64,000 nt of DNA from Octopus vulgaris (lineage: Eukaryota). Each line of letters opens with the position of its first letter. Within the stretch, counting starts at the first letter, position 1. Location: NCBI GenBank assembly GCA_951406725.2, contig OX597835.1, positions 24,366,001 to 24,430,000 of the forward strand. Direction: 5' to 3'. The translations under genes were made by a program, and so were the position numbers. The notes under the pieces were generated by a model that worked only from the letters and a program-made list of their open reading frames with translations, searched no databases and had not been told where the DNA came from. Below, piece after piece: positions 19,200-58,597 of the stretch.

Positions 19200-19790
19200 A
19201 TAAGAGAAGTTAGACCAATATTTAAGGACCAGCATTCAACCTCAGTCCCTCTAGTTTTACACTGAAGAGTGACAGTTACCTACTTGTGCCCCTGGATAAG
19301 ATAACAGTCTATCTTATGTCTAAAGAGTGAAGTTAGTCCTTTCATACAAGACTACTATTCTAACCCAACTTCCTGTTATTTTTCCACTGAAGCGAGACAA
19401 ATATCTCCTCTTGCCCCTGGATAAGATAACAGTCTGTCATACATGTTTAAGGAGTGAAGTTAATCCTTTCCTACAAGACTAGTACTTTAGTCTAACTTCT
19501 TGTTTTTCTGTTGAAGTGAGACATATCTCCTCTTGCCCCTGGAAAAACAACAGTCTCTCATACATATCTAAGTAGTACAGTTAATCCTTTCCTATAAGAT
19601 CAGCATTTAGCTCTACTTTCTGTTATTTTTCCAGTGAAGCAAAACAAATATCTCTTCTGCCACTGGATAAGACAAATAGTTAAGGAGCAAAGTTAATCCT
19701 TTCCTATAAGACTAATATTTTAGCCTAACTTCCTGTCATTTTTTTCTGTTGAAGTGAGACAAATATCTCCTGGATAAGACAACAGCCTAT
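19200..19790. repeat. Tandem repeat, about 5 diverged units of ~123 bp
   Basis: Anchor ctgga(t/a)aa at 19292, 19417, 19539, 19663 and 19770. Confidence 0.85.
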
Positions 19791-30305: not shown

Positions 30306-32366
30306 TATATATGTATATACGCATTTGCATATACACCCCTCCCTGTATATATGTACATGTGTACACACGTGCATATTCATCAATTTATATGTATATACAT
30401 GCATACTGACACACACATAATTATAAACACACACACACACACATATATATATATACACACTCATCCATATATATATGTACATATATATATATACACACAA
30501 ACACATACATATATATGCATGCATATATATATACATACGCACACCCATATATATACATGCACATACTACACATGATACTCACACATATACATATACACAA
30601 TCCCTTATATATATGCACACACACAAACACATACATCATACACACACACACACACACACATGTAGGTATAAATAATGCAAAAAAAGAGTGATGATGATGA
30701 TGACGGTGGCATAGAAGAACCAAAATAATCTCTCCCCTGCTCTTTTGCCATAACCCTAAAACCGATTCCAATATGCCAAAGTTGGAAATATTGCCAACAT
30801 TTTTGGCTCATCTCAGCACCAAATAAGGGGATTATATCACACACACACACACACACAATTAAAAGGGCAGTTTTGTCCCTTCTTGGGCCCCTTCACCAAC
30901 CCCTGCCTCCTGCTTAGTCTTCTGCATTCTTCAAGGTATTTGGAAGGAAAGGACAAACCTTTCCTGGCCAGAAGTATTTGGTGTTGCTAATGAGAGGTCA
31001 AGCTCTCCTCCAGCTCCCAATAACACCACCACCACCACCACCACCACTACCATCATTAATACCACCACCACCAACATCATCACTACCACTACAAACACCA
31101 CCACTCACTCACACCACCAATACTGTTCCTACCATTGTTACGACCACCACCACCAACACCACCACTATTATCATATTCCTCATCACTATTAACACCACAT
31201 GGATATTATTAATCACACTGCTCCAATCTCTATGCCTACCACCACCATATTGATATCATTAATCACACCACCCCAATCTCTATGGCTACCTCCACCACCA
31301 CCACCACCAGCCCAACTACCAGGCCACCCTTTTTCCATTCTGAGTTCAAATCTTAGTAAGGCCAACTTAACCTTTCATCCATCTGGCCAGGTGGTTTTCG
31401 TGGTGGTGGTGATAGTGGTGGAGAAATTGATAGAATCGGGTACCAGTCATGTACCGGGGGTTTAATATAATCGACACACTCTGCTCCTCCAGCCTCTTCT
31501 CCCTGTGTTAGAGAAATTATTGTATGCTTTTCAGTTGTTTCTGTCATTGAACCGTGGCCATACTGGGGCATTACATTGAAAAGTTTTAGTTGAACAAATC
31601 AACCCCCAAGGACATATATTTTTAAGTCTGGTACTTATTCTATCAATCTCTTTTGCTGAGCTGCAAAGTCATGGGGTATGTGAGTAATTTAAAAATACCT
31701 TACAGAACAACTGTGCCCTGTATTTAGGGGTTGCCCTTTGACAAGGCACTGCACCCGTTCAGCTACCCTGCCAGAGATACAACGAAGTCATTGGGACTGC
31801 AGCATGGCAGATTGTGAAGAGGCAGTAGAAGAGCTCCACTGAGTCAATGGTGCTTCTTACATTGATGCTGAGAGGAAGAATTTTGGAAGATCAATGGTGA
31901 GGATCACCAAGCTCTGTCAAGAGAGTAACTGCAATGCATCCATAGGGGGGGTGGTGGCCATGGTTGTGTAATCAGCTGATGAAAGACTCGTTATAATTCA
32001 AGCTCCCAATTCAATGGAACTGGTTGGTGAGGGAGAGTCATGGGAACCCATGAAAGCATGGTAGGCTGCACCAAACTCCAGTTTGATTTGGCATGGTTTT
32101 CCATGGCTGGATGCCCTTCCTAATGCCAACCACTCCAAGAGTGTGTAATGGGTGCTTTTATGTGCCACCAGCATGGGTGCCATTTGCATGACACCAAGGT
32201 GCTTTTATGTGCCACTGGCACAGGTGCCAATTTCTGTGACACTGGTATCTGCCATGTCTGCTATTTTGCTCAGCTTGATGGGTTTTCTTCTCAAGCACGG
32301 CATAATGCCAAAGGTCTTGGTCATTGCCTCAGAGGAACTCGGCCACTGGAGACTGTCAGAATGATG

Positions 32367-32419
32367 TGGATGCCTCTGATGAGAACCCAATAAGGTTCGA
32401 AAATTGATTAAGGTGTTCA
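32367..32419 (+). ncRNA. Type I hammerhead ribozyme motif, intact core, in a direct-repeat element
   Basis: tggatgcct-CTGATGA-gaacc-caataa-ggttc-GAAA-attga-TTA-aggtgttca. Helix I is 9 bp with G-U pairs and helix II is 5 bp. Predicted cleavage is after 32410. Confidence 0.78.
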
Positions 32420-34605
32420 TCATTTTCTTCAGTGATGAGAAATGGCTAAAATTTGCCCTGTTTATAATTATCCCCTATGTTACATATATATTATATCATA
32501 CCTTGATACTATGTATATTAAGATGCCCATTGACAGTACCATTGCTGGTATTTATAGAATGTTAAACATTTTCGATATGCAAATTAGGGACTCCTTCATA
32601 GAGTAACTGCTGCATTTGTTGAGTATATAAGCAGTTTGGCTGATTGTTTCTCTGGAGGCTGTCAGAATGATGAGAACCCAAAAAGGTTTGAAAACCAATT
32701 AAGGTTGTTCATTATTTTTTCCAGTCTGCAGAGAAATGGCAAAAATTTGCACTGTTAATAATTATACAATATGTTACATATATATGATGGGCTTCTTTCA
32801 GTTTCCATCTACCAAATCCACTCGAAGTTTTGGTTGGCTCAAGGCTATAGTAGAAAACCCCCGCCCAAGCTGTCATGTAGCTGGAATGAACCTGGGACCA
32901 TGTGGAAGGAAAGCAAACTTCGTGCCATATAACCACACCTATTTCTTTACTACCTACAAGGGGCTAAATACAGAGAGGACAGACAAACGGATTAAGTCGA
33001 TTACATCGACCCCAGTGCGTAACTGGTACTTAATTTATCAACCCCGAAAGGATGAAAGGCAAAGTCGACCTTGGTGGAATTTGAATTCAGAACGTAGCGG
33101 CAGACGAAATACCGTTAAGCATTTCGCCTGGCGTGCTAACTATTCTGCCAGCTCGTGTCATATAACCACAGCAACACACACAATCAGACAGACTGACACA
33201 CAGACAGATAGATTGATATGATCACTTCTACATGCTTTCTATTAAGGTCACTGACGAGGGATTGGTCAGCCCAGGGCTATAGTGGAAGATATTTGCCCAA
33301 AGTGCTGTGCAGTGGGACTGAGCTTGATATGATGTGGTTGATCGAACTCTGTTTGTTGAACTGCTAAGTTATGGTTTCTTTCATGACCTGGATACACTGG
33401 TTTACACCAGTATAGCCGTAAACACAGGCAGGGATGCTGGCACAAACATTTGTCCCCATCAGTCTTCACATCGTCACTGCTGGGGCAGCGGCAGTATTCA
33501 TCATCATCACCAACACTATCATGATCATTCCATCATCACCACCACCACCGTTACCATTATCATCATTATCATCATCATTAACATTATAACCATCATCATC
33601 ATCACCAACGCCATCATCATCATTATCTTCTTCGTCCTTGGCAACATCATCACCACCACTATCAACATCATCAATACATCTTCATTAACATCCTCATCAT
33701 GTATTTAAATGTAAGTCAATGAGATGTATATATATGTGTGTGTGTGTGTCTATGTGTGTGTGTGTGTCGGCTCTTGTATATACATGAATGTAAATGACGT
33801 GTGTGTGTGGGGAGGGTGAATATGTCTCTTCCATGTAATTGTATGTGAATGTGTAAATTTGTGTATGGGTACATATATATGTGTGTGTGTATATGTATAT
33901 ATGTATAATGCATATGTACATATGCATGTGTATATGCTCATCTGCATATGTGAATGTGTGTATGTGTATATGTGTGTGTGTGTGTGTGTGTTGATGCAAG
34001 ACTGGTCATCCTATTCCTTAGGATATCATCCATGACTGTAACAAGTATGGGGAGGTGTGGGGTATGGCAATGAAGGGGTAAGAGGGTTTTAGAAGGGGCT
34101 TGACCAGGTCCCAGGTAATTAGGTGAACGGGTGGGAAGGTGAAGATGAGGGTAAGAGTGACGGTGGGGGGGGGGGAGAATGAGTAGGGTGGGAGAAAAAT
34201 AGTGGTAGGAGGATGAATTTGTGATAGAAGAGGGAGGGAGGAAATGATAGAATGATGAGAGTGGGAGGCAGACGTAGAGAAAAGGAGGTGGTGGTGGCAG
34301 GGATGGGGAGGGACAAGAATAGTCAAAGGAAAGGTGTAGGGAGAGGAGAGGCAGTACTAATACAACAGCTGATCACCAATTCTATATTAATGAGGAAAAG
34401 ACAAAAACATGGTAATGGTGGTGGTGGAGGTGGAGATAATGGGATTGATGGTGGTGTAGTGACAATAGTGGTGGTGGTGGTAATGGAGACAGTGATGGTG
34501 ATGATGTGGTGGTGGTGGTGTTGATCATGGCAATGCTGTTGACGGTAGTGGTGGTGACAGCAATATTAATTTGGTAACACCAATGCTGGTGATAGTAGTA
34601 GTAGT

Positions 34606-37159: not shown

Positions 37160-37590
37160 CATCTTGAGTGTCTTTCGGAAATCCTATTAATGATCTCAAT
37201 GTTATCAAATAGATAGGGATTCCTCGGAGCAGAGTCTGCATCTCCTGGAAAGGACATTATATGATTGTCCATGCCTTATTATGGACCAATTAATATCATA
37301 TTCAATTTTATCTTCCTTAAGTTGCCACACAAAATTAGCCAAAGATGTTGAATGCCTCTTGTTGATTTTCTTGAAGCTGACGACATGATTGTGATAACGA
37401 TTCTTGAATGAATCAGCTTGAATGAATCACTCAATGTAAACATACAATCCTCTCCTTGCATCTACGGTACATTTATATACAAGATTTGTACTCATACAGA
37501 GGTCCATCAATGGGCATTCTGATTTCTCTCTGCATGAGCATTTATTAGTTTTAGTTGCATATGTGGCAGTTCTGACTTCATTTTCACACA
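37160..37590 (-). mobile_element. Degenerate fragment of a second, divergent Penelope-like element (GIY-YIG region)
   Basis: Minus strand reads NKCSCREKSECPLMDLCMSTNLVYKCTV...DSFKNRYHNHVVSFKK...SLANFVWQLKEDKIEYDINWSII...RRCRLCSEESLSI*, collinear with the 57 kb element. It has stops and frameshifts. Confidence 0.85.
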
Positions 37591-56637: not shown

Positions 56638-56668
<31 letters not shown>

Positions 56669-56770
56669 TGGTAAAACGGTAAGATAACAAAAGAAAGAAA
56701 GAGACCTCAATATTATGTAAATAGAGGAAATTTATCTATACAATAATATGTTACATTACTCGGTAGTCAA

Positions 56771-56829
56771 GATAAAACTGAGTTTCAGATGCCGAAGTGG
56801 AAATCCACAACACCATCTCTTCGGTTATC
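56771..56829 (-). ncRNA. Hammerhead motif (U4C) in the 3' UTR of the Penelope-like element
   Basis: gataa-CCGAAGA-gatg...catc-t-GAAAC-tca-GTT-ttatc. PLE pseudo-LTRs are known to carry minimal hammerheads. Confidence 0.65.
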
Positions 56830-57013
56830 TGGCTATTTGAAAACGCTATGAAAAAATACCGTTATATAAAGAGAAATTACTGTGTTATAACTCTGCTTGC
56901 CTGCATACTTATACATCGCTCGCATTTTTCGTCATAAAAAATTATATAAAAATACATAAAAAATATATAAAAATATATAAAATCTTCTTGGGACATAACA
57001 TAGAAAGCATGTT

Positions 57014-58219
57014 CTATCTGTTTTCTTTAGGGGACCAAAAACGTAACAGAAATTTAGTCACATGTGGGCATGATCCGAAAAGTTCTGTACTTGTGTTTAG
57101 ACATGTAGTAGGGTCTAAGCTGCTTTTTCAGATAAGCCATCTCTCCATGTCGCATAGACCGCACCTTCTGCTGCTGTTGGTATAGGGCTTACATCTGGCC
57201 AAAATCTTCCAATGTATATTATAATCGACACCTTTATCCCTTAAAGACCAAATATGATTAGATAATTGTGTCGCTTTTCTTTTGTTCCAGTGCCTAAAGC
57301 TCAAAGTGTGGTTATTGAACCTGGCCTTGAAATTACCATCTGTAAGGCCCACGTATTTCTTCGTCGAAACGGTGTCTTTAGTGGTTATAGAGTTTACGGT
57401 AGCTTCATATATGATGGTCTTGGACATGCAAGCTCCATTTAGCGGGCACAATTCTTTATTCCTGCATGAACAGCTGTTTTCTTGTTGTGTTTTTTGTATG
57501 TTATGTTTGATTATGTTTTTAAAATTGGTAGTTGAACTAAAACTAATTTTTAAATTGTGTCTATTGAAGAGTTTCCTATAAGCATGGTTAACTGGAAAAT
57601 GTCTATCTATCAGTGCTAGGAAATATTTACCTATATTGAAGGCCACCTCGGGTGAGTAAGGGGGCGTAAACCAGATGACCTTCCTATTTCTATTATCCCT
57701 TTTCCTTACTGTTGGGCTAGTAATGGGTGTATATTTTATTTTTTCGCTAAAACCACTATCTTTTAAAGCCTTATTATAAACTGGGGCAACGCTATTGAAG
57801 ATGTCCTTATCAGAGGAGAGGCTAGAAATCCTCTTACTAATATTTTTAACTAAATTTTTGATTACTATAGGGGGATGGCATGAACCTACATTAATATAAC
57901 TTAGTCTATCATTGGGCTTCCTATAAGGCTTATAAATATTCTTATTAAGATCTAAGGAAACGTCTAAGAAATTGACAACCGTCAGGTTAGTATCTATAGT
58001 TATACTAAGTCCGAAGTATTTCATTAACTGGATAATATCCTTCCTAAAACGATTTTGTGCTGGTCCATTTGTATTAGCTGTTAAGGCGAGGGCATCATCT
58101 TTGTAGATGGCGAAATGTATGTTAGGGAATGTCTTACCTAAGGTATCTAGGAGAAAAAGTCCAATTAGATCGCAGATGCCTGCCCCATCATATGAACCCA
58201 TGCTCACATCGAAAGCACC
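57014..58219 (-). pseudogene. PLE reverse transcriptase/GIY-YIG ORF, 5'-truncated, with an in-frame TGA at 57128-57130
   Basis: The 359-aa ORF in the track continues in the same frame past TGA as KSSLDPTTCLNTSTELFGSCPHVTKFLLRFWSPKENR to TAG at 57014-57016. This contains the conserved PLE C-terminal LN..EL...C.H..KFLL motif. Confidence 0.85.
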
Positions 58220-58220
58220 C

Positions 58221-58274
58221 TAATATGTTACATTACACGATAGTCAAGATAAAACTCTGAGTTTCAGATGCCGA
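58221..58274 (-). repeat. Partial direct copy of the PLE 3' UTR (pseudo-LTR fragment) at the inversion junction
   Basis: taatatgttacattac...tagtcaagataaaactctgagtttcagatgccga matches about 56743-56795. Confidence 0.85.
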
Positions 58275-58280
58275 CACAGA

Positions 58281-58544
58281 GGGCGCTTTCGATGTGAGCA
58301 TGGGTTCATATGATGGGGCAGGCATCTGCGATCTAATTGGACTTTTTCTCCTAGATACCTTAGGTAAGACATTCCCTAACGTACATTTCGCCATCTACAA
58401 AGATGATGCCCTCGCCTTAACAGCTAATACAAATGGACCAGCACAAGATCGTTTTAGGAAGGATATTATCCAGTTAATGAAATACTTCGGACTTAGTATA
58501 ACTATAGATACTAACCTGACGGTTGTCAATTTCTTAGACGTTTC

Positions 58545-58546
<2 letters not shown>
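58281..58546 (+). mobile_element. Inverted duplication of the PLE 5' segment (mirror of 57955-58220)
   Basis: 266-bp near-identical reverse complement with the same translation (MSMGSYDGAG...NFLDVS). Ends in (TA)n. Confidence 0.92.

Positions 58547-58597
<51 letters not shown>

Follow-up and report, generated by a model that had tools for sequence, protein, structure and literature searches.

Non-LTR retrozymes of metazoans have been described from coral, mussel, and axolotl (Cervera and de la Pena 2020, PMC7229834), and retrozymes derived from Penelope elements have been reported in vertebrates by Li, Clavereau and Pollet (bioRxiv 10.64898/2026.07.22.740005; Li et al. 2026 in the following). 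The latter authors argue that retrozymes derive from Penelope terminal repeats (pLTRs), and their sampling covers vertebrates, three insects, and one coral. Penelope-like elements themselves carry minimal hammerheads in their pLTRs (Cervera and de la Pena 2014, PMC4209133; Craig et al. 2021, PMC8557442). The minimal Penelope hammerhead has a helix II of 7-8 bp, an extra nucleotide after A9, and a short helix I, while the canonical metazoan type I motif has a helix I of about 6 bp, a helix II of about 4 bp, and a helix III of 1-2 bp with a palindromic loop (PMC4209133). Helix sizes are not exclusive, because some Penelope elements carry canonical hammerheads. For cephalopods, the accessible passages of the giant squid paper only count 235 Rfam hammerheads, and the text passages and supplement of the Octopus vulgaris repeat paper yielded no family like the one discussed below. 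No description of this family was found either in the literature on octopus or cephalopod hammerheads or ribozymes, and the supplement of Cervera 2020 may list it. All comparisons with these systems are made from excerpts of the cited papers, and likeness to the published retrozyme families is by description and not by sequence.

The window, i.e., the whole 64-kb stretch of Octopus vulgaris DNA that was analyzed, contains an array of about 440 bases that consists of about 1.45 head-to-tail copies of a non-coding unit of ~306 nt (Table 1). The reading that we prefer, with a probability of about 0.65, is that the unit belongs to a hammerhead family, likely a Penelope-derived non-LTR retrozyme, of which this copy is likely unable to release a monomer. 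Like the metazoan retrozymes, the unit is non-coding and arranged in tandem, falls within 150-450 bp with a GC content under 50%, carries a type I hammerhead, has a self-paired monomer, and co-exists with Penelope-like elements (PMC7229834). Its helix III of 2 bp and a tetraloop resembles HHR_Amex2, and the palindromic loop resembles HHR_Amex1 from the same study. Unlike those retrozymes, the locus has only 1.45 units and a dead second ribozyme, and no target-site duplication of at least 6 nt was found around the array. The unit length lies near the averages of 313-316 bp given for amphibian and insect elements by Li et al. 2026 (10.64898/2026.07.22.740005), whose systems also include pLTR-related units as dimers, as monomers, and in decayed form. 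However, these authors call active those loci with two consecutive units that have complete hammerheads, and the locus falls outside this class by the deletion in copy 2. With the Penelope pLTRs the unit shares the type I topology, the palindromic helix III, tandem insertions of more than one unit, and, as in the Hydra clade, the association with TA runs (PMC4209133, PMC8557442). The helices of copy 1 (10 pairs, 5 bp, and 2 bp) are those of the canonical metazoan type I motif and not of the minimal Penelope type (PMC4209133).

Table 1. Features of the hammerhead array, its left flank, and the coding Penelope-like element, in window coordinates
Feature	Positions	Strand	Basis or remarks
Left flank: a different high-copy repeat, interrupted where the array starts	32280..32345	.	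Contig alignment tables
Repeat copy 1, comprising the outer arm of helix I, the hammerhead, and a tail of ~80 nt that closes with a TA run	32346..32491	+	Pairwise alignments; family coverage in 4/4 runs aligned
Predicted type I hammerhead, copy 1	32366..32420	+	Descriptor scans
Helix III strand (monomer: 2 bp + tetraloop)	32402..32409	+	Contig majority letters
Connector, tail to 3' linker	32492..32543	+	Most family-divergent part of the locus; some other copies start or stop at its edges
3' part of linker	32544..32651	+	Contains the TATATAA motif and a predicted pairing arm
Repeat copy 2	32652..32785	+	15-nt deletion after 32667; cut-site strand (UA 32700-32701) kept
Array 3' end at TA run	32771..32785	+	Runs into the microsatellite tail of a high-copy repeat unrelated to the unit (~32776-32940)
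5'-truncated coding Penelope-like element	57128..58219	-	RT end, GIY-YIG-like domain, CxCx5C linker, TA flanks

The direct repeats that the original prediction had placed at about 32347-32490 and 32652-32785 are real: a global alignment of 32346-32494 with 32652-32788 gave 116 identical columns out of 134, with a single 15-nt gap, and the local alignment of 32250-32600 with 32560-32900 reached a score of 148, against a maximum of 26 in 200 shuffles. BLASTN between the copies returned 83.5% identity over 121 nt. The copies start 306 nt apart, which sets the intact monomer at ~306 nt, and no third copy of the unit occurs elsewhere in the 64-kb window. The unit has 34% GC and stops in all six frames; no open reading frame was found in or beside the array, nor one with reverse transcriptase (RT) and GIY-YIG domains flanked by the repeats at this locus. 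Between the copies there are 17 substitutions in 131 columns (JC 0.14), and because of this divergence the insertion is old if both copies began identical, in line with the earlier view that this copy is probably old. The surroundings are made of microsatellites and high-copy interspersed repeats. The repeat adjoining on the 3' side has more than 10 other copies within the window, and its microsatellite tail confounds the array's own 3' end by merging with the TA run. The TATATAA of the linker, at 32624-32630, is a putative promoter-like motif; a bacterial promoter scan was uninformative.

As had been predicted, the first repeat holds the best hammerhead, with an intact core, a 5-bp helix II, and an extended helix I: it is the only match of the strict descriptor in the window, and 200 simulated windows that keep the dinucleotide frequencies of the real one gave 0 matches. 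Helix I joins 32366-32375 with 32411-32420 by 10 consecutive pairs, four of them G-U, and the core consists of CUGAUGA (32376-32382), GAAA (32399-32402), and UA (32409-32410), with the cut predicted after 32410. Helix II (32383-32398, GAACC/GGUUC, 5 bp) is closed by the loop CAAUAA, which presumably resembles the Schistosoma loop. An Rfam search found no hammerhead here, neither at the gathering score nor at E up to 10, and its other results were sub-threshold, unrelated matches only.

The second repeat has indeed lost 15 nt between two TGATG microhomologies, as the single gap in the alignment indicates; in copy 1 these motifs flank the missing stretch at 32362-32366 and 32377-32381. The deletion takes out C3 together with the helix I 5' strand, and copy 2 is also altered in helices II and III. 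A contig that differs at 0 positions over 32609-32802 includes the deletion, and the run it comes from (X1, record 8) is possibly the very sample from which the window was assembled. Regarding the cut sites proposed at 32410 and 32701, they are homologous positions 291 nt apart, but this spacing is a product of the deletion and the intact unit measures ~306 nt, not the ~290 nt proposed for the monomer. The release of such a ~290-nt RNA at this locus, with cleavage through a dimeric helix III, is not supported, because copy 2 lacks the core and the 5' strand of helix I. For site 1 there would be no second core to act with, and its helix III has just 2 bp; cleavage of site 2 would depend on core 1, at most within a dimer whose helix I is bulged. 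A 291-nt monomer is therefore unlikely to be released. The size and layout of a retrozyme are borne out by the type I hammerhead, the non-coding sequence, the GC content, and the tandem-type unit, but only one core is complete. Because copy 2 carries the deletion and only core 1 survives, the locus is classed as a relic and not as an active member; it is likely an old, inactive retrozyme copy that does not serve as a source of circular RNA.

The RNA from cut to cut folds better than each of its 200 dinucleotide shuffles (z -3.18), and for 32346-32651 the fold has a z of -2.52, with 2 of 100 shuffles doing as well. In the folded monomer the 5' tail is predicted to pair with the 3' end over ~40 bp, which would place ligatable ends together; a pairing of the linker arm at 32626-32652 with tail positions 32437-32466 is also predicted. 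Taken by itself, copy 1 is no more stably folded than its shuffles (z -1.3), and its minimum-energy fold is not the hammerhead. The letters found in the majority of the family, limited to the 18 listed within 32411-32701 in 40 of 100 table rows, were no more stabilizing than random changes (8/18 versus 60/150, p = 0.42).

The existence of a dispersed family is indicated by the contigs of other sequencing runs, which were aligned to 32280-32860 at 80% likeness. Of 24 runs, four were aligned in this way, namely a DNA run of organism A (X1), a DNA run of organism B (X5), and one presumed-RNA run of each organism (X15 and X16), and the whole unit is covered in all four. The C at 32405 was found in 89 distinct contigs of X1 and 112 of X5, hence in many genomic copies of two species. 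This letter is carried by the family majority (82% in X1 and 87% in X5) and makes helix III a perfect 8-nt palindrome, which in copy 1 of the window is off by one through a C-to-T change. Majority letters at 32405, 32682, 32689, 32695, and 32697 (61-97%) repair the ribozyme in both copies.

The joint that leads from the linker to an intact hammerhead (32651 to 32346) is present in five X1 and three X5 contigs, with more joints nearby, among the best 15 of 132 joints. The junction between tail and linker is crossed, with at least 31 nt on each side, by 8 of the 32 records displayed out of 97,299 pieces (three each in X1 and X5, one each in X15 and X16), and these records are 11-17% different from the window. 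Both junctions of the closed ~306-nt unit are therefore shared by other loci in two species. Furthermore, the missing 15-16 nt are present in four of the seven displayed records that span the deletion site. Other copies in this layout, the lack of which the original prediction had named as one point against it, thus exist as far as both junctions and the intact hammerhead after the linker are concerned, but no displayed record has two intact hammerheads: neither these in tandem nor three units occur among the 32 displayed of 97,299 pieces. X1 record 3, the only displayed one that covers both hammerhead positions, seems by gap arithmetic to be without the 15 nt too, which speaks against this reading. 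The family-like contigs of X15 and X16 are 8-14% different and, relative to the flanking repeats, 3-18 times scarcer than in the DNA runs, a comparison that reveals neither circles nor RNA levels, since it is made on contigs.

Some candidates from these tables were rejected. The joints 32405 to 32698 and 32414 to 32716, considered as circles or deletions, are single copies split across both repeats, and the joints that go back by 306 nt reflect the window coordinates and do not measure the unit length in the contigs. One X5 joint, 32514 to 32362, goes back 153 nt in two contigs and hints at a shorter variant of the unit. No loose ends within the unit appear among the best 24 of 1,076 rows, which are dominated by the flanking repeat.

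The life cycle that would account for this layout can be sketched by analogy with the published systems (PMC7229834, PMC4209133). In intact members of the family, two hammerheads, paired by way of their palindromic helix III, would cleave a tandem transcript, and the resulting ~306-nt monomer, its ends predicted to be paired, would be closed by a host ligase. A Penelope-type RT/endonuclease would then use a TA-rich target for priming, close to the TA run that lies ~80 nt downstream of the cut site, and reverse transcription would continue past one turn, stopping here after 1.45 turns. Priming near the TA run followed by 1.45 turns would account for the observed layout, with the TA run as the 3' end, a complete unit, and a further 0.45 unit truncated at its 5' side. 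In favor of this, two other copies appear to end at the same TA run (X15 record 11 and X5 record 25). If confirmed, the family would extend retrozymes to another animal lineage.

The alternative that survives best, although we regard it as rather unlikely, is that the unit is the pLTR of a coding Penelope-like element, dispersed mostly as solo, 5'-truncated ends of ~255 nt that run from 32544 through the hammerhead to the TA run, so that the locus would be a tandem or internally deleted pair and never an independent circle of ~300 nt. Three records stop at 32544, two of them with 154 and 243 unaligned letters upstream (X15 record 13 and X16 record 19), and in two others the alignment ends at the TA run, beyond which 521 and 334 letters are unaligned (X15 record 11 and X5 record 25); as one piece is shown per record, such flanks may partly align elsewhere. 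Both sets of ends are what this alternative expects, but the break at 32544 could also stem from the indels of the window copy at 32537-32541. The same ambiguity applies to the connector, whose summed depth in the DNA runs is 27-64 times below that of the tail and linker, where depth dips are by themselves no finding and summed depth is no copy number; a rough estimate of ~770 copies derived from it was set aside for that reason. Together with the stops at 32544, the low depth may mean that most copies are open, pLTR-like elements of ~255 nt and only a minority is closed; it also fits poor alignability, given that at 32511-32541 the window copy departs from the majority by at least six substitutions, besides several indels. 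The TATA-like motif ~50 nt upstream of the ribozyme suits a pLTR, as do the type I hammerheads with palindromic helix III that Penelope elements carry (PMC4209133, PMC8557442) and, by analogy, an unrelated metagenomic family that occurs both as a dimer and next to RT-like frames (see below). Opposite to this, the array has no reading frame in or beside it, its helix sizes are canonical and not minimal, and each of the four runs has the closed tail-connector-linker junction from other loci. Homology of the unit with the Penelope terminal repeat in the window was rejected as well, because 38 of 200 shuffles score as well. The two explanations may nevertheless describe one family, since Li et al. 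2026 (10.64898/2026.07.22.740005) derive retrozymes from pLTRs. The apparently fixed 3' end at the TA run and the break at 32544 provide two coordinates for locating the parent Penelope element. Finding it would put to the test, in an animal other than a vertebrate, the view that retrozymes descend from Penelope elements, a point that the available text of Li et al. 2026 names as untested.

A bolder version of the retrozyme reading has a low probability. Here the family would be young and active, with ~306-nt circles copied by a TA-targeting Penelope enzyme from a fixed priming site, and the unit lacking 15 nt would be a propagated passenger, i.e., a ribozyme-dead parasite that keeps its cut-site strand and would be cut in a dimer by the core of an intact neighbor. 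The passenger is hinted at by X1 records 3 and 7, which seem to lack the 15 nt, and by the helix III strands of copies 1 and 2, which can still pair (-1.9 kcal/mol for the computed duplex). By gap arithmetic, these records, 11% and 15% different from the window, have no room for the 15 nt at 32667-32668. Either a recurrent microhomology deletion or a propagated dead variant would explain this pattern, and an alternative alignment is also possible.

It is improbable that the unit is a SINE-like, dispersed solo hammerhead element whose tandem layout is incidental and goes back to a local DNA duplication. Solo or partial copies do lie inside long unrelated sequence (X15 records 10 and 11, X5 record 25, and X1 record 5), but a one-off local duplication would not yield both junctions at other diverged loci of two species. 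Finally, a chance hammerhead-like motif or an assembly artefact is scarcely credible, as the missing Rfam match and the shuffle-like fold of copy 1 alone are outweighed by the empty simulated windows, the majority letters that restore the motif, and the contig identical over 32609-32802, so that contig alignment and simulated windows largely refute it.

The coding Penelope-like element at 57128-58219 shows that possible helper elements exist in the genome. Its CxCx5C linker and TA flanks are as described for Penelope elements of the Hydra clade in the available text of Craig et al. 2021 (PMC8557442), and its Pfam GIY-YIG match (E = 0.025) is below the cut-off. The region 56660-58550 holds this element on the minus strand, with an open frame of 363 codons; part of a terminal repeat lies upstream, and 58282-58545 carries a truncated copy in inverted orientation. 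At ~56770-56840, also on the minus strand, a degenerate motif resembling a hammerhead, but of a different family, was recognized by eye where the descriptor missed it. In addition, a decayed GIY-YIG-like fragment at 37220-37546, also on the minus strand, has 37.5% identity over 112 aa to the Penelope-like frame. The sequence ATGTNACAT is common to the tail of the unit and that of the Penelope-like element, with sites at 32477, 32771, 56748, and 58225; it is not enriched in the window (four sites versus six expected), and all four sites fall in the tails of the two hammerhead-bearing elements. Elsewhere in the window, 19255-19771 is a tandem array of about four units of 121-125 nt.

A scan of other sequence collections with the hammerhead pattern gave 0 matches in viral contigs and 19 in metagenomes, none of the latter homologous to the unit past the ribozyme core. 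The metagenomic matches include a separate type I hammerhead family, in contigs L003, L005, L009, L012, L013, L015, and L018, which forms a 233-nt dimer in L003, directly precedes RT-like frames in L015 and L018, and is solo in others; for these frames the RVT_1 match reaches only E = 0.036. In another contig, L014, positions 7-70 form a type I hammerhead whose helix II is the same and whose helix III is palindromic, located on the opposite strand just past the end of an RT frame that matches RVT_1 with E = 4.5e-13.
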